A stretch of DNA of 64,000 nt from Eledone cirrhosa. Its lineage: Eukaryota. Below, in pieces: positions 8,584 through 64,000 of this stretch (the first letter of the stretch is position 1; each line of letters starts with the position of its first letter). The stretch lies in NCBI GenBank assembly GCA_964016885.1, contig OZ024740.1, forward strand, positions 154,380,001 to 154,444,000, read 5' to 3'. The notes beneath the pieces were generated by a model. The model searched no databases. It worked only from the letters and a program-made list of their open reading frames with translations, and was not told where the DNA came from. Made by a program: the position numbers and the translations under genes.

Positions 8584-9050
8584 GAGAGAGGGAAAGAGTG
8601 AGCTAGGTAGAGGGAGAGAAATAGACGGATAAACAGACAGACTGTCTTACAGGCAGACACATAAAGAGATACATAGATAACTATACTGACAGACAGACTA
8701 ACACACAGACAGAACAACAACTATGATGAATGAGGAAAAATCTTCAATGAACTGTGAGTGTCCTCACAGTTTTAAAATCGAATTTCTTGTAATGAAACAC
8801 AAGCCTGAGTCGATTCAAATCTTTTGGAACATGTTAAGCGTGAATCCTGTCTATAAGCCGCTTGATGAAAGCAACAGACATATTTCAATCTTATTAGACT
8901 TCCTCAGCGAAACATGTTCACTCTACTAACTGGTGAGCTAAGAACGACTTGAAACTGATATAAGAAAAGAATAGAAAATTGTTTGTCATTAGAAATTATA
9001 GCTCTCTTCATAAAGTATCGACACAAATAGAGTCTCGTAGTCTAAATAAT

Positions 9051-10421: not shown

Positions 10422-10488
10422 CATGCTGATGAAGGCGTTACATCGGTTTATTAACATGTGACTGCCAGAAACATGGGTTTATGTCCAG
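10422..10488 (+). ncRNA. Hammerhead ribozyme motif at a PLE-type 3' end
   Basis: CTGATGA-A GGC GTTACAT..ATGTGAC t GCC A-GAAA-CAT gggttt ATG-TC, followed by ATTAAA and (TA)n; stem I is weak. Confidence 0.6.
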
Positions 10489-12840: not shown

Positions 12841-12844
12841 TTCA

Positions 12845-13938
12845 GCAATATAGTTTGTTATCCTTAACTTTAAATATTAAATTAAGAAAAATAAAGAAAA
12901 ATAACAGATTGGGCAAAAATGCCTGGTAACAACTAGACAGTGTTGGAGACTGTTTCGCAACGACTTATTAAGTGAAGTTTTCACTTTTCTCTGCTCCTCA
13001 GTAGTTGTTGAGAAATTAGTGATCCTTTCACTTGTAAAAATATTAGAGAATGAATTGTGTACGATATGAATTATCACACGTGTCATTCGGAACCCAGCTT
13101 GTCTCGAAATTCCCTGCCGCTAAAAATAGCAGCTTGGCTGACAGGACAATAAAAATTAGCTCTACATGATGGAGCCGACAAATATATATTGAGTTAAGAA
13201 CTCAGAGTAGTCCCTTACAATTAAATAGCTCTAAGAAAAAAGCTTTTCCGAGCCGTACAATATAATGGTGAAAAAATACTAACTATAGCAATATAGTTTT
13301 CTTAATTTAAAGTTAACTATATTGCTGTAGTTAGTATTTTTTCACCCTAGCAAATTTTAGTCCTTGCGATTCGAACACATGTATGTTTATATTAGTGTTC
13401 ATCTCTCTTGATTATTCAATTATATTGTACGGCTCGGAAAAGCTTTTTACTTCGAGCTATTTAATTGTAAGGGACTACCCTGAGTTCTTAACTCAATATA
13501 CATTTGTCGGCTCCATCATGTAGAGCTAATTTTTATTGTCCTGTCAGCCAAGCTGCTATTTTTAGCGGCAGGGAATTTCGAGACAAGCTGGGTTCCGAAT
13601 GACACGTGTGATAATTCATATTGTACACAATTCATTCTCTAATATTTTTACAAGTGAAAGGATCACTAATTTCTCAACAACTACTGAGGAGCAGAGAAAT
13701 GTGAAAACTTCACTTAATAAGTCGTTGCAAAACAGTCTCCAACACTGTCTAGTTGTTACCAGGCATTTTTGCCCAATATAGATCTGTTATCTTTCTTAAT
13801 TTTTCTTAATTTAATATTTAAAGTTAAGGATAACAAACTATATTGCTGTAGTTAGTATTTTTTCGCCCTAGCAAATTTTAGTCCTTACGATTCGAACATA
13901 TGTATGTTTATATTAGTGTTCATCTCTCTTGTTTATTC

Positions 13939-14391: not shown

Positions 14392-14998
14392 AATTAAGTT
14401 AAAAATGTACATCCACATATGTATACTGAAATACTAGTATGCATATGAATACACACACGTGTACATATGTAGATGTACCGAGTTTTCACTGGTCACTTTA
14501 CTGTGAGTGTCCAGCTATTCTGTATGTAGACACACAGACAAACCGGTTCTTAGAGTCATACTGGTTTTTGAGGAAACACCTTTCCTCTATTCTCCAGAAA
14601 GCCAGACAAGGAATATTGGACTAGTTTCGATGTTGTTACATCTCATCAGCAATATTTACCTATCTTCCGGCTTCTCTAGAGAATCGTGAAAGCACATATC
14701 GTTATATGCTTTTTCTATGAAAATTAGTAGTGGGCAGACCAATTTGCATAGAGCGTGAGTACGTACCGGTTCAACGGAGACGATAAAAACAAATAACGAA
14801 ACGAAATTAAATTTCGTTTCGTTTGTAACTCACTTTTGTATGACTGACGCTTAAACAATTAAGTTAAAAATGTACATCCACATATGTATACTGAAATACT
14901 AGTATGCATATGAATACACACACGTGTACATATGTAGATGTACCGAGTTTTCTGTGACCAGTGAAAACTCGGTACATCTACATATGTACACGTGTGTG
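14392..14998 (-). mobile_element. Non-coding HHR element (family C, divergent), about 465-nt unit plus short inversion
   Basis: 14392-14490 is repeated at 14857-14952; 14956-14998 is inverted; shares motifs with 54836-57270. Confidence 0.8.
14612..14656 (-). ncRNA. Canonical minimal type I hammerhead ribozyme
   Basis: AATATTG-CTGATGA-GATGT aaca ACATC-GAAA-CTAG-TC-CAATATT; fully canonical with a GUC cleavage site. Confidence 0.92.
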
Positions 14999-15016
14999 TA
15001 AACAAATATTTGTTTT

Positions 15017-17624: not shown

Positions 17625-19713
17625 TGCATGTTCTTCTGGTTTTATAATTTCACAAATGGTTACCAATAGAGAGAGAGTCGGTTTCTAACATAGACACAAG
17701 ACTCTCACATCGGAATTTACACAACATCAACTAGGTAGATATGTATGTATGCATGCATGTGTAGATATGGATGTTATTGTATGTGTGGATGTGGATGTTT
17801 TGAGTTGTATGTGTGCATGTCTATATGCTTTGCATCTGCACATATGTATATGCAGTTATTAGATGCAAAATTTTTGGAATGTTTTACATATTTTTACTGT
17901 TCCATTAATGGATTGTACTTGTAATTTCCTAACTAGTTGTGTTCTTTCTGTTCCTGTGAAGCCTGGCTTCTCAAGATTTGTATTGAGGCAGTTACTAACA
18001 TATCCCAGTGCCCCAATAATCACAGGCATAAATCTGAAGGTGTAATCAGGGTGGAGTATCTGCAGATTTCTCATCAGTTCTGCATAAATATTCTCCTTTT
18101 CACTAATGTTTGATATTACATTGGCATATGCTGGGCAGCTAATTTCCACTACTGTGCATGCTTTCTTCCACTGTCCCATATCATAATATCTGGTCTGTTA
18201 TGCCTGCATTTTATTGGGGTTTTTACTAGAACATTCCACTAGTACTCTTTCATATTATGTACATGGATGTCTTCCACATTGCTGTAGCTTTTAATGTGTT
18301 TATTATAGGGGCTATCTTTTTTACGAACTGCATTGTACAGTGTTTTGGCCACTACACCATGCCTCATAGGTAGATAGAACCGCGATGGCATCTTTGGACA
18401 GCTACTGATCAATGTTAGTTCTGCAGAGTCTGCACTTGTTATCATATCTAGGTGTTTTGCCTGCATCCCTATCTCTTTTGTGAATCAGGTATTTCGTGTT
18501 AATCTCCTGTTCTTGGATGTCAAAAGCGTATCCTTCAAAGTGGGAGCCAATATAGCTGTTGTTGGTCCAAGATAGACTACTTTCCTTATCTATATTACTC
18601 TCACTCTGGAGCTTTCTGGCAACATATCCATGCATGATTTTTTGCTGATAAGCATGCAGTTTTTCATCCATGGATTCACTGCGATACTGCTGAGCGACAT
18701 CCCTGGGTGTAAGTTTTTGATTATCACACAGGGAATATCTCTCGAGGAGTTCCTTCCCAACTCTCATGATCTTATCTGTTTCATGCAGATAGACTTGCTC
18801 GAGAAACGGGCTCCTACGCTTCGAGGTTAGTATATGTTGTCGGAGAAATATGATGCGACATTCAAATGTTGTCTGGACTGATGTTAGGCCTCTGCCTTCC
18901 TGCTTACGTTTCAAGTAAAGGCAGTCTATGTCACTGTTGATGTGGAAGTTTCCGGTGTTGTTTAGTGTTTTTCGAGTTCCAACATCAACTGCTCGGATTT
19001 CGTCTATCGTCCAATTGAGTATTCCAAACGTTGGTGTTAGGACAGGCACAGCAAACACATTGTGAGCCACTGTTTTGTTTTGCGCAGAGAGTTACGATGA
19101 CCAGATCTTTCTTAATCGGGTGTAGTATTCCCTGGTAACGCGTTCTTTATTACAGATACCATTATAGGATATGTTCTCATCTATCCCCACGTATCTGTAG
19201 CAGTCCGCATCAGATATCGGTGAAACAGTTAGGCCATTGATTACAATGTTGCTAGATTGGGTTGTTGTTTTTCCCCGCTTTACAGTCATGTATGAGCATT
19301 TATCTTGGCCAAACTCCATTCCTATATCCTTTGAGAACATTGTAACCATGTCAAGAATTTTCTTCATCCCATCCATGTTCTTGGCATAGAGTTTCAGATC
19401 GTCCACAAAGAAATTATGGGTTAGGTTCGTATTTCTGTCCTCCTGTGAGCCAATGATGTATCCCTCACATTTCTTGAGCAGAAAGGACAAGGGGTTTAAT
19501 GACAAGATGAATAATATCACAGAGAGACTGTCCCCCTGAAATATACCCCTGCAATATTTTATTTTATCAGTGAAAATAGAGTTCTCCCTCTCTGTCTTTA
19601 ACCATAGGATAGTAGCCCAAGAAGAAGACAGCCTCTCTATGGCTCTGACAATAATGTCTGGGACTTTAGCAAGTTGGAGGGCCTCTATCATCCAAGAGTG
19701 GGGAACAGAATCG
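17625..19713 (-). mobile_element. R4/Dong-clade non-LTR retrotransposon, 5'-truncated (RT, CCHC knuckle, RLE endonuclease, 3' UTR)
   Basis: YDSVPHSW, RGIFQGDSLS, FFVDDLKLY, GMEFGQDKC, CRLC zinc knuckle, RPDI..VEISCP..EK..Y RLE motif; frameshifts and stops; (CATA)n-type flanks. Confidence 0.9.
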
Positions 19714-19837
19714 TATGTATGTATGCATGTATGCATTTTTATGTATGCATATGTATATATGTATGTATGTATTTATGCATGCATGTATGCATTTGTATGT
19801 ATGCGTATGTATATATGTTTGTAAGTATGTATGTAGA

Positions 19838-20673: not shown

Positions 20674-21174
20674 GAGGTTATATTTAATTTGTTGGGATTC
20701 AACAAGCTTAAAGAATTTTATAACTGATATAAAGCAACGTATCATTATAAATATTATAATCACAACGTAATGAACCCTACATTCTAAATATTATTCTTCC
20801 ACGTTAATCTTATTTCTTCTTTCACTTCTTCCTTCACTTCTTCTTTCACTTAGATATATTTACGCTATGTATATTTTTCCATTAAAACTTATTTCTTCAT
20901 TTACTCTGTCTATCTCCAATATCACTATGTATAATCGTTCTTTCTTTCCTCTTATCTCTTTCTCCTTCCTTTTCTTTTTCCTCTCTCCCTTACATAACAT
21001 CTTCTTCCAAATAAACCGTTATCTTTTCAATTTCTCGGACACTCATTTGCATACTCACTCATAACTTTGTATTACCCTGAATAAAATATTATCTCCACTA
21101 TCCAGGAAGGTCCAACCGTTAAGTGTTTGTCTTTTTTTTCGGTTATGTCAATGTTTATTTATAAAACAAATGTG

Positions 21175-21240
21175 TATTTTATCTGATGAAAGCGCACCAT
21201 AATTTGCCTTGGTTGACCTTGAAATATATATAATGAAATA
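21175..21240 (+). ncRNA. Hammerhead ribozyme in a PLE-type 3' end (about 20770-21285)
   Basis: TATTTTAT-CTGATGA-AAG..CCA..TGG..CTT-GAAA-TATATA-TA-ATGAAATA; second copy at 49479-49544. Confidence 0.8.
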
Positions 21241-21409
21241 AATATGGTTTTATAAATATAGTTTCCATTTATTAATATATTGTATATATATATATATATA
21301 TAATAATAATAAATTTGAAGACTAAAATCCAAAGAGGGCACGATAAGGATAAATATATATCAAATATATAAGAACTGTAGAGCAAATATTTATTAAAATA
21401 ACAGATTAA

Positions 21410-21460
21410 AGTTTAAGCAAAGAATCGCTGCTTTCACCCTTAACGGGATCTTCTGAAACT
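21410..21460 (-). ncRNA. Hammerhead ribozyme, CAGAAGA core variant
   Basis: AGTTT-CAGAAGA-tCCC gttaa GGGt-GAAA-GCA gcgattctt TGC-TT-AAACT. Confidence 0.7.
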
Positions 21461-22437
21461 AACAAAGTCAATCTGTAAACGCAGAAGTGGATATTTTAAA
21501 AAACGTTGCAACCGAAGGAAGACAAGAAGACGATACTTTGGTTCGTGGAAACGTTCCCTGGCAAAGAACGGGAAAAAACGAATATAATACGTCATTATTT
21601 GGAGCGGTGAAAAACAATTAGACGCAAAGACAGAACGACGTTTATGGTATAAAAGAAGTTGTAGACTAATGTTCTCTTAGGTGGGTCATAGAGACGTTCT
21701 CTGGCAATGAACGGAAAAAACGAAGATAATACGTCATATGTGGAGCGGGAAGAACAATTGACCGCAAAGACAAAACCACGTAAATGGTATAGCTGAAGTC
21801 GTAGACTAAAATTCTAACAAAGAAACCGAATGATTCTCCGTTTCAGAGTTAAGAATAAAGTAAATAAAATACAATACAGAGGTAATTGATATTAAATAAA
21901 TACATACACGGATCCAAATATGTACATACACAGGCATACGCGAAAACACTCGCCATAGGTATTCAAACCACGCACATATAAATATATGTGTGTGTGCGTG
22001 CGTGTATACAAATAAATAAGTAATTAAATAAACTTATATAAATAAATAAATACGTATATAACAAGCGCACACATATACCTATATGTAAATACACAAATGT
22101 TCGGAGACGTACGTCAACCAAAACATGAAATACACATATACACACACCCAACATACGTACGAAGCCGCATACTCACACAGACGCAAAACTCCCGTATACA
22201 CATAACCAAAAGCATATGTACCAGAATATATAAAAATATACGCCATAATAAAATCAAATATACGTACGAGAAAGTATACGTACCTTCACAAAACATACAC
22301 GTAATATATATTTCCTATGCAAATAAGTAATGGTATAAACATAACATATACTTAACTACCACATCAAGACGTAAAATATCCACGTATAGATCGTACTAAC
22401 CGTTAGGGTATAATGTGGGGCTGTAATACAGGAAAGT

Positions 22438-23650
22438 TTAGTGCAATTTATGTTTACAAGCCGAAATTGCCTCAGAAATTTTGTTTAAGATGTGGTCTGT
22501 GGCGTAGAGTATTTCCAGGGCCTCAGTGGCGCAGAGGTCACATGGTCTTTTATTTCCGTTATACAATCTAGCCCTAGCTGGGATCTCCCAGTGTAACTTA
22601 TATTGGCTGTGGTTGTCTTTTAGACTCCAGATATAAGCTGAAAGTGACGTCATATTCCTTCTTAGAGAGTAACGAAAAGAATGGGTATGCATGTAAAGAC
22701 ACTGCTTGAATCTATTGGCGGTTAACCCTATGTAGGCCCTACGGGACGTGGGTGTTTCAACCTTACATTTGTAGACAATGTTACTAGTGAGGCATTTCCC
22801 GGATAGGGGGCAATCAACCCGATTCCTACAATTACAGTTAGTACTAACTACAGGGTTGCACGTGTTCCTACGGCAAGGTAGTTTAGCTAAATTTGAAGCT
22901 GTGATGTTATGTGCAAGGTTAGGAGTCGTAGAGTAAGAAATTTTAATAGTATTTCAATTAAAAATTTTACTTATATTTATGTGTAGGGGGAAAATGCTTC
23001 GTAATAAGGGATAGAAGATCTTAGATAATGGTGTGGCCACCTCCATATTATATGGTGGGTTATACCATATGATGCGACGGGATCTAGTTCTTCTAGGTCT
23101 ATTCTCGTACTCTGTATATGCTACCTTATCGACAAATCCACTCCGAGCAAGAGCTTCATTGTAATAAGTGGAATGGTCGTTGAAAATATGCTTGTTAGTA
23201 GATAGACGGGAAAGCCTCAACGAAACGTTTCTTACCAGGTTCTTGGTTATGCTGGCAGGATGGTTGGAATGCTTACTTATGTAATTAAGCGTATCATTCA
23301 GCTTTCTATACGAGTAATACAAGCCATTCAATAAATTGAGGGTAACGTCGAGGTAATTAACGACCGAGAAGTTGGCCTCAACCTGTATAGAGAGGTTGAA
23401 GCCTTTAAAGAAGGCTGTGAGTTCTTTTCTGAACATGTCGCAAGCTCGAGGGCCGCACTTAGTGATGGTCAAAAGACCATCATCACGGTACAAACCTCCG
23501 CCCACGTTGAGGAATTCGTCCTTGATAGAGAAAAAAAGGAAAAGGCCGATAAGATCAGTAACCTCCGCGGGAATCGCCGGCGCCCATACTCACGTCGAAT
23601 GGGGTACTATTGGATTTTTTTATCCAAATAGAGTCGTCGAAATTAATCAC
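22438..23650 (-). pseudogene. PLE RT plus GIY-YIG coding region (frameshifted)
   Basis: ORF pieces 22954-23505 and 22438-22692 plus the intervening cysteine-rich linker. Confidence 0.9.
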
Positions 23651-27434: not shown

Positions 27435-27488
27435 CTACTATATATATTTCGATGATAACCATTGAATGGCTATGACCTCATCAGGCAG
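27435..27488 (-). ncRNA. Hammerhead ribozyme in a TA-flanked insert (27389-27740)
   Basis: CTGC-CTGATGA-GGT c ATAGCCA ttcaa TGGTTAT c ATC-GAAA-TATATA-TA-GTAG. Confidence 0.85.
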
Positions 27489-28059: not shown

Positions 28060-29898
28060 ATGGTTATACGGAACAGCCGAATACTGGTGGTTCAGGAAAC
28101 TTTCCTTAAATCATCCCTCCACCATACCCACATAGGATTTGACCTCCTGTGGTTGATTTGGTCGGTTGGAAGTGACCACAGCTTCATAAATTACACCGGG
28201 TGTGTTGCATTGCTGTTGAAGGGGACAACCTTTGGGCTTACGGCAAGAGCACCCTGGTGGGGTGTTGCTCTTAGGGCTGTTTGTGATGTGGATCTTCATG
28301 TCCTTAGCGCAGGAGTATCCTAGTTTTACTGTGTCGATTAAAGATGGAGCGGTATTTATGACCTATGGAAAAGTGTCTATCTAAGAGGGCTAGAAATTGT
28401 TTGCCTACATTGATTTTAACATTGAGTGAGAAGGGAGGAGAGAGCCAGATAGTTTGTCTATTGTTACGCTTTCTTTTCTGTTGATAGTGGGAGAGTAAGT
28501 GATAGGTTGCGAGAAGCCGCTGTTAGGTAACGCCGTGTTATAGTAGGGTGCCGCCCTGTCAAAGGTAGCCTTATTAGAGGAGAGGTTTGAGATTCTAGTA
28601 CTGATATTATTTACGAAGTTTCTAAAAACAGTGGGAGGGTGGCATGAGTCCTTGTGAATGTAATTGAGTTTATCGTTTAGCTTATGGAAGGGTCTGTAGG
28701 TGTGTGTGCGAAGGTCTAAATTAATGTCTAAGAAATCCACGCTAGAGAGGTTGGTAGTTACTGTTATCCTAAGTCCTATCTCATTGAATGTAGAAGCTAA
28801 GTCTTTTTTAAACCGGTCGAGATCGTGACCACTTTTATGGCTCGATAAGATCAGCCCATCGTCACGGTATATTCCCGTGTGGAAGTCCGGGAATCTAACA
28901 CGTAATATGTCTAAGATAAAAAGGCCCACCAAGTCGCATACGTCAGCACTGTCAAACGATCCCATGGAGACGTCGAATAGGTCTGAAGTTGTTGACTTCT
29001 TTGCCCAGGCTACTCCGTCGTTGAAGAGGAGGGTTTTCCGGCAGTGAGTGATGATTTCCCTGTCTAAACCATGGACGGTAGTGTAAGTGGTAGCGAAGTC
29101 CAAGGCTTTGTTTAACAGGGTCTCTGAGATCGACGGGTAAAAATCAACAATGTCAAACTGTGTGAACTTCGCTTTTTTGGATATTAAGGAGTTAAACCAC
29201 TTAATTACGGAGTCGCTGTTCTCCCACTGGGGCAGGTTGGACTTGGTCCTAATGGTGTTAACTATGTTTCTAAGTATGGCCTTACTGACTAGTCCCATAT
29301 CTGTGCCTGCCGGGTTTATTAGTCTACATGTGGAGTTAGAAGTAAAGTCTACCTTGTGATCTTTCAGGGTGAGGAACGCCTCCCGCGTAGCTAGAGATTG
29401 TAGTTTCTTATCTACCTTAAGGGCGGCAGCAAGTTCTTTGGCTTCTGTATTAATATCGTGGTAGGCCATAGGGTTAGCTTTCTTATATTTGGAAGTAATA
29501 GCGTTATGGGCCAGGTGGCGGAAAGTGGTGTTGTCGACTTCGTAAATATTATTAGTTTTGTCGGAAAGAACGAAAGTGTTATTAGAGGACCTAAATTTCT
29601 TAATATCATTTATAAGTTTAGTTTGAAAGGTGTTAGGGTGTTTGCGAAAGGAAATGTTAGCGACTAAGTCAAGATGGTCCGCCTCGAAAGGAGCAAGTTC
29701 AGTTACCTTAGGAGGATAGGCTCTCGATTTCAGGTTGAAGGTGTTATTGGTGCCTGCAATTTTGCCGTCAAAAGCTAGGGCTCGCCATCTTCAGCGTCTG
29801 ACGACATCTTCCGATTTTTGTAGGAGAAGCTTTTGGTAAACATGGTTGGAGGGAGTGGGAATGTTCTTCAGGGAGTAATCCAGTTCGTATAAATCCAT
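28060..29898 (-). pseudogene. PLE RT plus partial GIY-YIG ORF with stops and frameshifts
   Basis: ORF pieces 29412-29609, 28405-29469 and 28111-28299. Confidence 0.9.
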
Positions 29899-46495: not shown

Positions 46496-46515
46496 TATAT
46501 ATATATATATATATA

Positions 46516-46885
46516 AATGGAGTAGAATGAAACGAAATTTCATTTCTCACTCTTAGTACGGCACTTACTTAAATGTAAGTATGCATGTATGTATACGTAC
46601 ACACATATATGTATACAGACGTACAGTAGTATGTATATATATACATACATGCACACATATATACATACATGCACACAGTGTTGAACAAAAAGGTGACGTG
46701 GTTGCCTAAACACTGTATGGCGTAATTCGGACTATTTGTTTGTTTACAAACAAACAAACCGAGCATTATAATAAATGTTCGGTAAACCGATACGTGCATA
46801 TATATATGTGTGCATGTATGTATATATATACATACTACTGTACGTCTGTATACATATATGTATGTATGTATACATACATACTTAC

Positions 46886-46890
<5 letters not shown>
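46516..46890. mobile_element. Family C fold-back fragment
   Basis: Matches 54860-55010 and 55850-56110. Confidence 0.75.
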
Positions 46891-46937: not shown

Positions 46938-47765
46938 TATATTTCGTTTCTGAATTTGTTTAGCAAGATTCTTTATCTGAAATTGTGTGTTGAAACCGAT
47001 ATTGTTATGCTTTGGGGAGGTCATGTTGCCAATAAGAAACAAACGCACCAATTGCTTTCACTTCAATTTATTATAAATTAAATTTATAAATTTAGGAATT
47101 TATAAATTTCCGGTTGGTTGGTTCCACAACCAGACGATTATTCATATATTGTCAAAGTTCTTTCGTCACTTATTAGCAATACATTAGCAATACATTAGCA
47201 ATACATTAGCAATACATACCCTTTAAGAAATGTATAATCTGTAAATGAAACCCCCATATTAATTGTAAAACTAGAAATGTAGTATATAGCATAAGATGCA
47301 CTGAAGGACAATGTAGAGATAAGAATATAGTGTACATAGGTGAGACAGCTCGTAGTATAGGGGAACGGATAAATGAACACTGGCGAGAGCTTCAAGATAG
47401 TAAAGAATCATCTGTACTCCACCAACATGCTAAAATAGAACATAAGGGTAAATTTCAGAACATAGAAATAAAAATAGAATCTACACACAGAAAAGACGCA
47501 ATGTTTAGACAAATCACAGAGGCAATAAACATAAATGAACTCCATCCAAAATTAAATAGAAAACATGAATGGAATAGCAACATCACAACTTACAATTAAG
47601 GACTAAATGAAAACACACACGCACATAGAAAAACCAACCAACCAGTAACATCTAAATAAACAAATAAATAAACAAATATAAACACACACAGACACCCGGA
47701 TGTAACACATGCGCAAACAAAGCACACAACACACACAAAAACAAGATGGTGTAGGACAGAACAAA
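46938..47765 (+). mobile_element. PLE family A: inverted 3' end plus GIY-YIG fragment (47330-47599)
   Basis: VYIGETARSIGERINEH..RQITEAI..LNRKHEWN. Confidence 0.9.
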
Positions 47766-47868
47766 TGTACGTAGCCGAATTTTCGGCTTTTGAAGCACTG
47801 AGAATATGGCAATATACTGTATGTTTAATTAAAAACATTTACAAGACCATTCGCTATGAGTTTTAAAG

Positions 47869-47934
<66 letters not shown>

Positions 47935-47971
47935 CTTTAAAACTCATAGCGAATGGTCTTGCAAATGTTTT

Positions 47972-49402
<1,431 letters not shown>

Positions 49403-49478
49403 GCATAAGTTATATCCAGCGCACCTTCAACCGTCAAGGTAGTTTTTCTACGGGTCAACATCTATAAAACATATTTTG

Positions 49479-49544
49479 TATTTTATCTGATGAAAGCGCA
49501 CCAAAATTGCCTTGGTTGCCCTTGAAATATATATAATAAAATAA
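49479..49544 (+). ncRNA. Hammerhead ribozyme (same family as 21175-21240)
   Basis: TATTTTAT-CTGATGA-AAG cgca CCAA..TTGG ttgc c CTT-GAAA-TATATA-TA-ATAAAATA. Confidence 0.8.
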
Positions 49545-49581
49545 TTATGGCTTTATAAATATAGTTCCCATTTATTAATAT

Positions 49582-49640
<59 letters not shown>

Positions 49641-49644
<4 letters not shown>

Positions 49645-50030
49645 ATAATAATAAATTTGAAGACTAAAATCCAAAGAGGGCTCGATAAGGATAAATATAT
49701 ATCAAATATATAAGAACCGTACAGCAAATATTTATTAAAATAACAGATTAAAGTTTAAGCAAAGAATCGCTGCTTTCACCCTAAACGGGATCTTCTGAAA
49801 CTAACAAAGTCAATCTGTAAACGCAGAAGTGGATATTTCAAAAAACGTTGCAACCGGATATTTTACGTCTTGATGTGGTAGCTTAGTATATGTTTTGTTT
49901 ATACCATTACTTATTTGCATAGCCAGGGAACGTTTCCACGAACCAAAGTATCGTCTTCCTGTCTTTCTCCGGTTGCAACGTTTTTTTTAAATATCCACTT
50001 CTGCGTTTACAGATTGACTTTGTTAGTTTG
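49641..50030. mobile_element. Family Y pLTR fold-back with HHR at about 49750-49802 (-)
   Basis: Matches 21301-21515; the inverted part matches 23925-24030. Confidence 0.8.
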
Positions 50031-54739: not shown

Positions 54740-54836
<97 letters not shown>

Positions 54837-55158
54837 TTGAAAAAAATGAAAACGAAAAACGAAATTTCATTTCTCACTCTTAGTATGGCACTTAAATGTA
54901 AGTATGTATGTATACGTACATACATATATGTATACAGACGTACAGTAGCATGCATATATATATATATATATATATATGTATACACATATATATATACATA
55001 CATACATGCAGGTACACATACATATATGCACGCATCAGTTTAGCAGACGCTTATTATAGCGCTTGCTTTGTTCGTTTGTCAACAAACTGAACAGCCTGAA
55101 TTTATGCCATACGGTGTTAAGGCAACCACGTCACCTTTTTGTTCAACACTGACACAGG

Positions 55159-55203
55159 AACGATGTACTAGTTTCAAGCTTGTTAGCTATCATCAGCACC
55201 GTT
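55159..55203 (-). ncRNA. Minimal hammerhead ribozyme (family C)
   Basis: AACGGTG-CTGATGA-tAGCT aaca AGCTt-GAAA-CTAG-TA-CATCGTT. Confidence 0.88.
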
Positions 55204-55654
55204 TACCCATCTGCCAGATAGTTGAACGTTCGAAAGTATATACTTTCCTTATGAAAATTAACGGCTGAGCAGCCTAATTTGCATATTGAGTGAGTTAAAT
55301 CGGTCAGGCATACCGAAAACGATAAGTTGAAAAAAATGAAAACGAAAAACGAAATTTCATTTCTCACTCTTAGTATGGCACTTACTTAAATGTAAGTATG
55401 TATGTATACGTACATACATATATGTATACAGACGTACAGTAGCATGCATATATATATATATATATATATATATGTATACACATATATATATACATACATA
55501 CATGCAGGTACACATACATATATGCACGCATCAGTTTAGCAGACGCTTATTATAGCGCTTGCTTTGTTCGTTTGTCAACAAACTGAACAGCCTGAATTTA
55601 TGCCATACGGTGTTAAGGCAACCACGTCACCTTTTTGTTCAACACTGACACAGG

Positions 55655-55699
55655 AACGATGTACTAGTTTCAAGCTTGTTAGCTATCATCAGCACCGTT
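55655..55699 (-). ncRNA. Minimal hammerhead ribozyme (family C, tandem copy)
   Basis: Identical motif 496 nt from the previous copy. Confidence 0.88.
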
Positions 55700-56018
55700 T
55701 ACCCATCTGCCAGATAGTTGAACGTTCGAAAGTATATACTTTCCTTATGAAAATTAACGGCTGAGCAGCCTAATTTGCATATTGAGTGAGTTAAATCGGT
55801 GAGTTAAATCAGTGAGTTAAATCAGTGAGTTAAATCGGTGAGTTAAATCAGTGTTGAACAAAAAGGTGACGTGATTGCCTTAACACCGTATGGCATAAAT
55901 TCAGGCTGTTCAGTTTGTTGACAAACGAACAAAGCAAGCGCTATAATAAGCGTCTGCTAAACTGATGCGTGCATATATGTATGTGTACCTGCATGTATGT
56001 ATGTATATATATATGTGT

Positions 56019-56055
<37 letters not shown>

Positions 56056-56296
56056 TGCTACTGTACGTCTGTATACATATATGTATGTACGTATACATAC
56101 ATACTTACATTTAAGTAAGTGCCATACTAAGAGTGAGAAATGAAATTTCGTTTTTCGTTTTCATTTTTTTCAACTTATCGTTTTCGGTATGCCTGACCGA
56201 TTTAACTCACTCAATATGCAAATTAGGCTGCTCAGCCGTTAATTTTCATAAGGAAAGTATATACTTTCGAACGTTCAACTATCTGGCAGATGGGTA

Positions 56297-56341
56297 AACG
56301 GTGCTGATGATAGCTAACAAGCTTGAAACTAGTACATCGTT
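56297..56341 (+). ncRNA. Minimal hammerhead ribozyme (family C, inverted copy)
   Basis: Identical motif on the plus strand. Confidence 0.88.
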
Positions 56342-56713
56342 CCTGTGTCAGTGTTGAACAAAAAGGTGACGTGGTTGCCTTAACACCGTATGGCATAAAT
56401 TCAGGCTGTTCAGTTTGTTGACAAACGAACAAAGCAAGCGCTATAATAAGCGTCTGCTAAACTGATGCGTGCATATATGTATGTGTACCTGCATGTATGT
56501 ATGTATATATATATGTGTATACATATATATATATATATATATATATATGCATGCTACTGTACGTCTGTATACATATATGTATGTACGTATACATACATAC
56601 TTACATATATATATATATATATATAATGAAAAATTGAACAGGGACAGAACAGAGAGGCAGTACAATAAATGTTTATTAAATTCACGCTCAGGAGAGTGGG
56701 GGGTAGGTGGGGG

Positions 56714-56745: not shown

Positions 56746-56760
56746 GATATATATATATAT

Positions 56761-57266
56761 AAGTTGTAATATAATTAAACGAAATTTCATTTCTCACTCT
56801 TAGTACGGCACTTACTTAAATGTAAGTATGTATGTATACGTACATACATATATTTATACAGACGTACAGTAGCATGCATATATATATATATATACATACA
56901 GGTACACATATATATATGTACGTATCAGTTTAGCGAACGTTTATTATAACGCCCGCTTTGTTCGTTTGTAAACAAGCGAACAGCCTGATTTATGCCATAC
57001 GGTGTTAAGGCAACCACGTCACCTTTTTGTTCAACACTGACACAGGAACGATGTACTAGTTTCAAGCTTGTTAGCTATCATCAGCACCGTATACCTTTCT
57101 GCCAGATAGTTGAACGTTCGAAAGTATATACTTTCCTTATGAAAATTAACGGCTGAGCAGCCTAATTTGCATATCGAGTGAGTTAAGTCGGCCAGGCGAT
57201 AAGTTGTAATATAATGAAACGAAATTTCATTTCTCACTCTTAGTACGGTACTTACTTAAATGTAAG

Positions 57267-57270
<4 letters not shown>
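56761..57270 (-). mobile_element. Family C variant, about 440-nt unit, HHR at 57047-57091
   Basis: 56761-56830 is repeated at 57201-57270. Confidence 0.85.
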
Positions 57271-57318
<48 letters not shown>

Positions 57319-60971: not shown

Positions 60972-61105
60972 AGGATGAATATAAAATGAAAGTGCTTTTG
61001 TTAAAAAAGGAATTTATTAGGTATTGACATGTTTCTGTAACAGACCGAATACCTATGTATCGCTGCTTGCGTAATCATATAATGTTAGCAAGTATTCGAT
61101 AGCAA

Positions 61106-62911
61106 ATGTATAATCAGTTGTCACTTCTTCAGGACCACAAGGTAAACTTCGATACTAACCCTAATATTAGACTTATATGCCCCTCTAAATCTGATATAGG
61201 TAAAATTAGCAAATATATACTAGACAGAATTATCCCCCAAGTTAAGGTTAAAGTAGAGATTAAACTATGGGGTAACACTCATGAAGCAATAAGATGGTTT
61301 AATAACATTACTGATAAGAAAAAATCAAAATTTATTCAGTTTGATATTGATGAATATTATTCCTCAATTTCACCTGATACTCTACATGAAGCTCTTTCGT
61401 TCGCTAAGGATAATTCCGACCTTACGGATGCTGAAATTAAAATTATTATGGAAGCGAGAAAAACTATAGTTAAATTCGATGATAGCTACTGGGTTCGCAA
61501 AGATAGACCTTCTAATTTTGATATCACTATGGGTTCTAATGATTCGGCGGAAGTAACAGATCTTGTGGGAATTTATATCACCCACAGATTACAAGGAAAA
61601 TTCAAGGATCTCCACGGTGGAATTTACCGTGACGATGCGCTCCTATTAGTTAAGCATATGAATAACCAGAATTTAGAAAGGATGCGTAAAAATATCAGAA
61701 AGCTTTTTAAGGAACTAGGATTAAATATTACATTTGAATATAACCTCAAAGAGGTCAATTTCCTTGATGTTACTTTCAATCTCAATACAGATACGATTAA
61801 ACCGTTCCATAAACTAAATGAGAACCTTAAATATGTAAATATGAGTTCTAACCATCCACTCTCTATAATTAAATCCATCCCTAGAAATGTTTCTCTTAGG
61901 ATCTCCCGCCTGTCGTCCAACCAACAAACCTTCAAAGAACATGCCGAGTATTATGATGATGCACTTAGGAAAGCCGGTCACCTAGATAATATAGAGTATA
62001 TAGTCAAAGATCACCAAAACACCCAAAATAAATCACATAGGAGTGGAAATAGCACAGAATCACCACCATACAAACACTACCGCAATAGACACAATAATAG
62101 TCGCACACCACCAAACAGAAGGCGATGTAAGGAGTATATCTGGTACAACCCGGTCTATAACAACTCTATTAAAACCAATCTACCCTCAAAATTCTTTAGA
62201 TTAGTTAGAAAACACTTTCCAACATCACATAAATATAATAAAATCTTAAACCCTAACACTATTCGACTTTCATATTCAACCGCCCCTAATATTGAACAAC
62301 ATATAAAAAAGCTTAACGCAAAACGGTTGTATAAACGCCTTCCAACACATAACAATACACGTAAAACATTAGCTATAACATCACAAAACAACAAACAACA
62401 TCCTGTCCTACATAAGCAACCTCATCAACCCATCCATGGCAATACAACAACGCAAAATTATAATTGCAACTGTGTCCAACCAGGAATGTGTCCGTTGAAC
62501 AATCAGTGTCTTGAACGCAACATCGTATACAAATGTACTATCGAATCGGATAGACAGAAGTGGTACTATGTGGGATCTACAGCCACCTCCTTCAAATCAC
62601 GCCTTTATAGACATCGTTACTCGAGAAAACATGAAAACCAGCGTTATGTAACAACACTCGCAGACAAGGCTTGGCAGCTGCGTGAAAATAACCAACAATT
62701 TCACCTAAAATGGGATATAATAGCGGCTGCCCCCCCCCCCCCCCCCCCCATATATTCCCATGGACAGGAATTTTGTAAATTATGTAATGTAGAATTATTT
62801 TGTATTATGAAATCCAAAAACATTTTATTAAATAACAGAATAGAGCGATCGTTATACTGTAACCATCGCTTAAAATCTACATTTTCATATTATAAATACT
62901 ACCAGGATTGA
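61106..62911 (+). CDS. Penelope (Naiad-like) reverse transcriptase plus GIY-YIG endonuclease, N-terminally truncated
   Basis: DHK..RLICPSK, QFDIDEYYSSI, TMGSNDSAE, GIYRDD, NFLDVT, WYNP, CNC..CPL..C..IVYKC..YVGST, CKLC..E..LN.R.E..CNH. The first about 8 codons come from the inverted pLTR. Confidence 0.9.
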   Translation: MYNQLSLLQDHKVNFDTNPNIRLICPSKSDIGKISKYILDRIIPQVKVKVEIKLWGNTHEAIRWFNNITDKKKSKFIQFDIDEYYSSISPDTLHEALSFAKDNSDLTDAEIKIIMEARKTIVKFDDSYWVRKDRPSNFDITMGSNDSAEVTDLVGIYITHRLQGKFKDLHGGIYRDDALLLVKHMNNQNLERMRKNIRKLFKELGLNITFEYNLKEVNFLDVTFNLNTDTIKPFHKLNENLKYVNMSSNHPLSIIKSIPRNVSLRISRLSSNQQTFKEHAEYYDDALRKAGHLDNIEYIVKDHQNTQNKSHRSGNSTESPPYKHYRNRHNNSRTPPNRRRCKEYIWYNPVYNNSIKTNLPSKFFRLVRKHFPTSHKYNKILNPNTIRLSYSTAPNIEQHIKKLNAKRLYKRLPTHNNTRKTLAITSQNNKQHPVLHKQPHQPIHGNTTTQNYNCNCVQPGMCPLNNQCLERNIVYKCTIESDRQKWYYVGSTATSFKSRLYRHRYSRKHENQRYVTTLADKAWQLRENNQQFHLKWDIIAAAPPPPPPIYSHGQEFCKLCNVELFCIMKSKNILLNNRIERSLYCNHRLKSTFSYYKYYQD

Positions 62912-63853: not shown

Positions 63854-64000
63854 GTATTGATATACATGGGAGTCGAACCGACATCTTTGGTTATCCAGAC
63901 CACTGTGCTACCATTACACCAACACATCACATTGGTGTAATAGTAGCACAGTGGTCTGGATAACCAAAGATGTGGGTTCGACTCCCATGTACATCAATAC
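63854..64000. mobile_element. Head-to-head inverted pair of tRNA-derived sequences
   Basis: TGGTGTAATAGTAGCA A-box/D-arm, TGGT-CTGGATA-ACCA anticodon-like arm, GTGGG-TTCGACT-CCCAT T-arm; no acceptor stem; inverted at 63854-63922 / 63932-64000. Confidence 0.7.

Follow-up and report, generated by a model that had tools for sequence, protein, structure and literature searches.

The locus at 14,392 to 15,000 of the window, i.e. of the whole 64-kb stretch of DNA that was analysed, raises the question of how a hammerhead ribozyme can be kept in a repeat that has otherwise diverged strongly from its relatives, and by which route such a repeat spreads. The window, which judging by its content comes from an animal genome, is AT-rich and contains many simple repeats and broken retroelement ORFs. 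A sequence-only reading had proposed compensatory changes across the ribozyme and long-term selection for self-cleavage in a non-coding element. Since hammerheads with compensatory changes are well known from animal repeats, that reading is in itself ordinary. The movement of animal retrozymes by Penelope-like machinery has so far been argued from co-occurrence and phylogeny in the literature cited here; at this locus and its relatives, the Penelope pattern is visible in the insertion ends as such, which point to two candidate start sites of the reverse transcriptase (RT).

Hammerhead ribozyme and repeat unit

The letters given for stems, core and loop were confirmed on the minus strand, where a type I hammerhead occupies 14612..14656. 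Stem I is formed by AATATTG (14656-14650) and CAATATT (14618-14612) and the core CUGAUGA lies at 14649-14643; GATGT-AACA-ACATC at 14642-14629 makes up stem II with its loop, followed by GAAA, CTAG and TC, and the cleavage triplet is GUC. Helix III is the palindrome ACUAGU (14625-14620, minus strand), and the predicted cut site lies between 14619 and 14618. Stem I reaches beyond the pairs quoted at first: the extended helix (14589..14684, minus strand) comprises a bulge (UAA), the pairs GG/CC and, distally, a long helix around the ribozyme, with a pair probability of 0.94. With helix I open, all three helices are present, and helix III comprises 2 bp as monomer and 6 bp as dimer. The self-duplex of ACUAGU, which is helix III between two copies, has an energy of -4.8 kcal/mol; the same duplex of the 48 kb copy is weak (-0.2 kcal/mol).

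Five further hammerheads of the family were found by a descriptor search of the window, with core positions 48327 (+), 55196 (-), 55692 (-), 56304 (+) and 57084 (-). The strict descriptor matched eight loci, six of which belong to this retrozyme family, and none in each of 12 block-wise dinucleotide shuffles. A model made from four copies gave at least 89 bits for all six family hammerheads, as expected by construction, and nothing else scored above 22 bits.

In Rfam, the 14.6 kb copy matched Hammerhead_HH9 (RF02275) over its full length with 38.9 bits (E 1.2e-8), below the gathering score of 52; no Rfam hammerhead family reached its gathering score anywhere in the 64-kb window. Rfam microRNA matches tracked TA hairpins, were all below gathering scores and were discarded. 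In a comparison by sequence alignment only, the UA bulge of stem I and the A-rich loop II (A-A-Y-A), putative partners in a tertiary contact and kept in all four units, are in register with HH9. Hammerhead_HH9 is a single-copy amniote locus, whereas the family here is multi-copy and its helix III is five model positions shorter.

Hammerhead positions (N7, 15.1, 16.1, H17) are given in the usual numbering. The core was claimed to be kept, and this holds for CUGANGA, GAA, A15.1-U16.1 and H17, whose 11 positions are all invariant in the four distinct sequences; both GUC and GUA occur as cleavage triplets in the family. The stem I sequences at 55-57 kb and 48 kb are as quoted, except that the outermost quoted position is U at 57 and 48 kb. 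For stem II, GATGT/ACATC with AACA was found at 14.6 kb as described; the loop said to be retained is AATA at 48 kb, where N7 is C. Most pairs bear out the compensatory changes, but the basal pair of stem II is broken, going from G-C to U.U, and U.U is found in five of six copies. Owing to this base and the AATA loop at 48 kb, not every change is compensatory. A U.U at the base of helix II, as in this family, also occurs in the cleaving axolotl ribozyme HHR_Amex2 (PMC7229834).

The repeat unit of the family measures 417-496 bp (roughly 450 bp) at a GC content of 0.35-0.37. No coding frame was found in it, and all overlapping frames of at least 100 AA are of low complexity. The 14.6 kb unit is 60-61% identical to the other three in the regions flanking the ribozyme and 64-71% within the 45 columns of the ribozyme, while the units at 48, 55 and 57 kb are 79-94% identical among themselves. 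The units are homologous outside the ribozyme, since 14703-14943 matches 48286-48057 (68%, E 1e-13; part of this stretch is TA/CA-rich). The strong divergence noted for the surrounding unit applies to its sequence, but the fold appears to be kept.

Compensatory change in a repeat-borne hammerhead is, according to the description of the pDo500 satellite of the cave cricket Dolichopoda (PMC2837043), already known: this repeat of about 500 bp has compensatory stem changes and a protected core, as here. The ribozyme of pDo500 is more conserved than its flanks; in the present, dispersed family it is so only to a slight degree (64-71% against 60%).

Insertions, their ends and the probable route of spread

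The family is present in five insertions with eight arms. At 14.6 kb (insertion A), the main arm (14392..14952, minus strand) contains 1.2 units of a 465-bp repeat with only one hammerhead, and its 3' end at 14392 lies against (TA)n; an inverted arm of 47 bp (14954..15000, plus strand) is joined head to head at 14953 and is identical to 14496-14450 (47/47). The direct repeat within the main arm is likewise perfect (14392-14487 equals 14857-14952, 96/96). Judged by this identity, the copy is young and a member of a second, recently active subfamily, not an old relic.

Insertion B (46513..46886) consists of two truncated arms without ribozyme, head to head at 46676/46677. Insertion C (47971..48620, plus strand) contains 1.5 units of about 420 bp with the core at 48327. 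Its two rounds are 7 mismatches and 2 indels apart; hence, not every arm came from one circle. At 47832-47972, about 40 bp of flank is duplicated in inverted orientation across a TA run and immediately adjoins insertion C at its 5' end, which looks like fold-back copying of target DNA. The left arm of insertion D (54832..55803, minus strand) comprises 1.96 units of 496 bp, in which consecutive tandem units each carry a type I hammerhead (cores 55692 and 55196). Its right arm (55849..56606, plus strand; 1.5 units, core 56304) starts 15 nt past the cut site and has the short 3' end described below. The inversion junction (55785..55853) holds five 13-bp repeats, which may be due to RT stutter. 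Insertion E (56759..57290, minus strand) contains 1.2 units of 440 bp with the core at 57084.

Five of the eight arms are longer than one unit, three of the five insertions are head to head and seven arms abut (TA)n, TA runs being common in the window anyway. Measured from the cut, the 3' ends fall at +268 to +272 in three arms, at about +330 to +340 in four arms and elsewhere in one. All four long ends terminate in TTAT before CG, and this motif is invariant in the four units. Short and long sites are 60-70 nt apart, and in B and D the long end is found on one arm only (in B this is the left arm, the right one ending at the short site). For the short end, AT microhomology is another possible cause; the position corresponding to it falls into the loop of a small hairpin predicted at 14850..14863 (minus strand). 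Two of the eight arms begin 15-16 nt beyond the cut site, which is suggestive only. The five arms longer than one unit would have been read through the cut site, for which a circular or an uncut multimeric template is needed.

By its testable features, as far as they can be read from genomic sequence, the family is an animal non-LTR retrozyme. With the retrozymes described by Cervera and de la Pena (2020, PMC7229834) and in a preprint by Li, Clavereau and Pollet (2026, 10.64898/2026.07.22.740005) it shares the non-coding, low-GC tandem unit, the canonical type I hammerhead, the weak palindromic helix III and a strongly self-paired fold which leaves the ribozyme free. A dimer design via palindromic helix III is known from PMC4209133 and, backed by assays, from PMC7229834, the latter also reporting a self-paired fold for retrozyme circles. 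In contrast to these animal retrozymes, the unit here has an internal TA/CA hairpin, the subfamilies are 60% identical with the same helix order, and the arrays are short (at most two units per arm).

Its mode of insertion, by analogy, appears to be that of a non-autonomous Penelope-like element. Partial tandems, an inverted 5'-truncated arm, a microsatellite target, two alternative 3' ends and an extension of one arm only (here in B and D) are shared with Penelope-like elements and their pLTR hammerheads (PMC4209133, PMC8557442, PMC11167929); partial tandems, inverted truncated arm, microsatellite target and a tail at one end are described as marks of such elements (PMC8557442, PMC11167929), and the tail has been linked to two RT start sites (PMC11167929). 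Unlike these elements, the family has no ORF, its hammerhead is canonical instead of minimal, the extension is 60-70 nt where 30-40 nt is the usual length of the tail between the two start sites, a tail often present at one end only, and no parent was found in the window. A profile search of the 64-kb window found no unit-like sequence beside any ORF; Penelope-like ORF remnants are present.

The observed anatomy of unit and hammerhead, the covariation and the insertion pattern are best explained by a non-LTR retrozyme that is a non-autonomous Penelope-like element, and we consider this identity very probable. Following the cited systems, tandem copies would be transcribed on the ribozyme strand, two hammerheads would pair via the palindromic ACUAGU and cut out monomers, and a host ligase may close the monomers into circles. 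A Penelope-like RT-endonuclease would nick (TA)n DNA, start at one of the two fixed sites of the unit and copy past the cut site, leaving 1.2-2 units and, when both target strands are used, as would often be the case, head-to-head arms. The next generation would be made by copies in which the hammerhead and, probably, the remaining fold are intact; stems would thus covary while the sequence drifts.

Several points count against this explanation. In Xenopus, eight of nine predicted retrozyme dimers did not cleave in a test (10.64898/2026.07.22.740005). In vitro, the insertion of a Penelope element did not require its hammerhead, which cleaved only when protein was present (PMC11167929). Here, the U.U base of stem II, the weak helix III at 48 kb, the excess of the 3'-site gap over the usual tail length, the single hammerhead in A, the failure of the profile search to find the unit beside any ORF of the window and a comparison that comprises three lineages have to be added.

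Insertion marks identical to those seen would also be left by solo pLTRs, i.e. truncated pieces of a Penelope-like element that still codes, copied from long read-through transcripts. In that case, selection on the hammerhead would have taken place in the coding parent, and free circles would not exist. Truncation at the 5' end is found in most such insertions (PMC8557442), and the differing rounds of C fit a multimeric or older template better than one circle. However, the unit end joins its own start in five arms with no ORF remnant between, predicted helices close across this junction, and both rounds of A are identical. Solo pLTRs are an unlikely source of the units.

Covariation in the ribozyme and fold of the unit

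Between the 14.6 and 55 kb copies, stems I and II show 12 substitutions at 22 positions, all of them in six pairs altered on both sides. With pairs fixed by the core, 10 of 11 are still paired (p about 7e-4); if the extended part of stem I is included, 18 of 19 are kept (p about 5e-6). Among the four sequences, 7 of 21 pairs are doubly changed and 95% of cells are paired, which was reached by none of 500 shuffles in a test that ignores the relatedness of the sequences. Slid registers, used as a control, gave 30-49% paired cells and 0-2 double-changed pairs. Under nulls with 51-70% transitions, each of the 20 tests that included the 14.6 kb copy gave p ≤ 0.0062, and G-U pairs are retained in the ribozyme helices. 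The four distinct sequences represent three lineages, and a single branch accounts for most of the double changes; with three lineages only, significance of the R-scape kind for single pairs is not attainable. Compared among themselves, the 48, 55 and 57 kb copies carry too few ribozyme changes to test covariation, and the result is thus one deep comparison, not many. As it exceeds the shuffled, slid and transition-biased controls, the covariation in the hammerhead stems of these copies is real. Neither outcome that had been named as refuting, units without homology or covariation short of significance, was thus obtained.

These comparisons show that the hammerhead fold and core are under selection. 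Self-cleavage, which had been proposed as the selected property, we infer from fold and core, and the assumed long term is undatable.

When folded separately, the 14.6 and 55 kb units showed, besides stem II, 13 helices in the same order, most of them also in the other two units; correspondence of helices was judged by eye from position and sequence. Circular folding compared with shuffles gave z-scores of -5.4 to -9.6 per unit. After removal of the TA-rich part, z was -4.3 to -9.2 for the sense and -2.7 to -5.0 for the antisense strand, and the sense strand folded better in all four units. One of 30 control folds was below z -4; it is located in another hammerhead-bearing repeat.

A predicted long-range helix (14554..14845, minus strand; 14845-14838 with 14561-14554) closes the ribozyme half and was found in three of the four units as cut. 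One of its pairs is U-A, U-G or C-G across copies and another A-U versus G-C. The best-conserved block outside the ribozyme (14714..14752, minus strand; 17/20 identity to the 55 kb unit) forms a hairpin predicted in all four units, with ATGCAAAT in its 5' arm. This sequence hints at a promoter of the octamer/snRNA type, like that of newt satellite 2, for which no paper surfaced in the literature search. A promoter role may apply, but the same letters also form one arm of the hairpin.

For pairing outside the ribozyme, the structure of one unit was projected onto another via sequence-only alignments, excluding the ribozyme. From 55 to 48 kb, 85 of 91 pairs were kept with 5 compensations (p 0.0002-0.002). 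From 55 to 14.6 kb, 71 of 102 pairs were kept and 13 compensations were counted; p was about 0.003-0.004 when the transition rate was set as observed, and 0.11 and 0.009 with 70% transitions. The projection from 14.6 to 48 kb was not significant, with p 0.28-0.60 for the compensatory counts, and with 70% transitions pairing outside the ribozyme was significant in none of ten tests with the 14.6 kb unit (p 0.05-0.44). The RNAalifold consensus was left out of the counts, because its alignment misplaces the start of the 14.6 kb unit. Pairing outside the ribozyme thus appears to be kept beyond chance, firmly between 48 and 55 kb and less firmly for the 14.6 kb unit. Given the strong, the mixed and the non-significant projections, conservation across the whole unit is likely, not settled, and selection on the complete 13-helix fold is, in these models, somewhat favored. 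A covariation test across a whole animal retrozyme unit was not found in the literature examined; the supplements of PMC7229834 and of the preprint may bear on this. If one fold is indeed kept by the whole unit despite 40% divergence, the two subfamilies would be a natural experiment for identifying the helices required by the RT, the ligase or the promoter.

Beyond that, the unit might be a viroid-like circular RNA that is selected for its 13-helix fold as a whole, docks the Penelope RT at the two start sites by a defined structure, diversifies through copying at the RNA level and has moved between species; this is quite improbable, more so than an origin from solo pLTRs. Lower still is the probability that the paired changes arose by correction of imperfect palindromes at the level of DNA or RT, without selection on RNA function. 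Local palindromes are abundant in the unit, the antisense strand folds well too, and the divergence between 14.6 and 55 kb is alike in paired (104/282) and unpaired (55/142) columns. Such correction does not account for the invariance of the unpaired core, the retained G-U pairs or the better folding of the sense strand; moreover, the arms of stem I are 31 nt apart, with a core between them that is not palindromic, and one helix bridges about 280 nt. Equally remote is a service to the host as regulatory circle or trans-cleaving ribozyme, which has been proposed for satellite hammerheads (PMC2837043) and for which the abundance of retrozyme circles in other animals (PMC7229834) would speak, whereas the copies here are young, dispersed in microsatellites and often truncated, and the pattern is explained by selection on the spread of the element. 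Most likely, selection acts on this spread and not for the host.

Sequencing runs and neighboring elements

The search of sequencing runs covered the 55 kb stretch only. Part of this stretch was present in 20 rows from 15 studies with 16 coded organism labels, 17 of the rows matching at least half of the words; one study is possibly the source. Among the rows listed, no RNA run contains the stretch. In run X1, 3,676 contigs matched, ranging from >99% to <90% alike, as for a high-copy family; they represent a large, varied family and not a copy number. Runs X4 and X20 and the raw reads of X23 gave no matches to the 55 kb stretch, and such blanks can be false. As only X1 of four runs was confirmed, a spread across species is unsupported; the list of organisms would be accounted for by close relatives or by carry-over from sample to sample. 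X1 varies at 19 places in 321 bases, four of them in the ribozyme (loop II, N7, a wobble pair and the edge of stem I). No variant fell into the 11 core bases, where fewer than one was expected, so that this absence is no test. Degenerate family patterns matched neither metagenome contigs nor viral contigs, two collections not aimed at animal genomes.

At least four hammerhead-bearing repeat families lie within the 64 kb. A second one forms an inverted pair, 96.5% alike, at 12843-13266 (minus strand) and 13419-13848 (plus strand), with cores at 13001 and 13684, a long stem II, a full stem III of 4-5 bp and an 8-bp stem I; AAAA replaces GAAA at 13684, and the folding score of this family was not above shuffles. 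Hammerhead-like motifs with a TATA loop III were observed at 21157-21514 and 49460-49856 (cores 21183 and 49487), and a further TATA-loop motif of different sequence at 27484 (minus strand). The sequence downstream of the motif at 21183 (21290-21820) has a match at 24200-23664 that continues into Penelope-like ORF remnants (22438-23589), and this motif may thus be the pLTR ribozyme of that element. At 1733-2698, a partial-tandem and inverted insertion with a unit of about 480 bp lies between TA runs and has a hammerhead-like motif on the minus strand, with a very long stem II and a palindromic stem III. Single weak hammerhead-like matches at 10426 (plus strand; no second copy in the window) and 8860-8929 (minus strand), one of which scored 21.8 bits, may be chance.

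Twelve frames were searched against Pfam: 47249-47596 matched GIY-YIG and 19095-19772 matched RVT_1, and the other ten had no match. The latter match belongs to a broken, stop-interrupted ORF of a non-LTR retrotransposon (17859-19772, minus strand), to which pieces at 34.6-38.1 kb are related. For the frame of 602 aa at 61103-62911, 56 relatives were found, and the few that are named come from animals; its domains are presumably RT followed by endonuclease. An RT frame at 28405-29790 (minus strand) shows RWR and DKT motifs, and 61103-62911 and 22438-23589 look related. These motifs are close to RWK and DKT, described as marks of the Hydra clade of Penelope-like elements (PMC8557442). Two tRNA-like copies, an inverted pair 90% alike, lie head to head near a TA run at 63854-64000; they may represent a tRNA-derived element with a similar mode of insertion.
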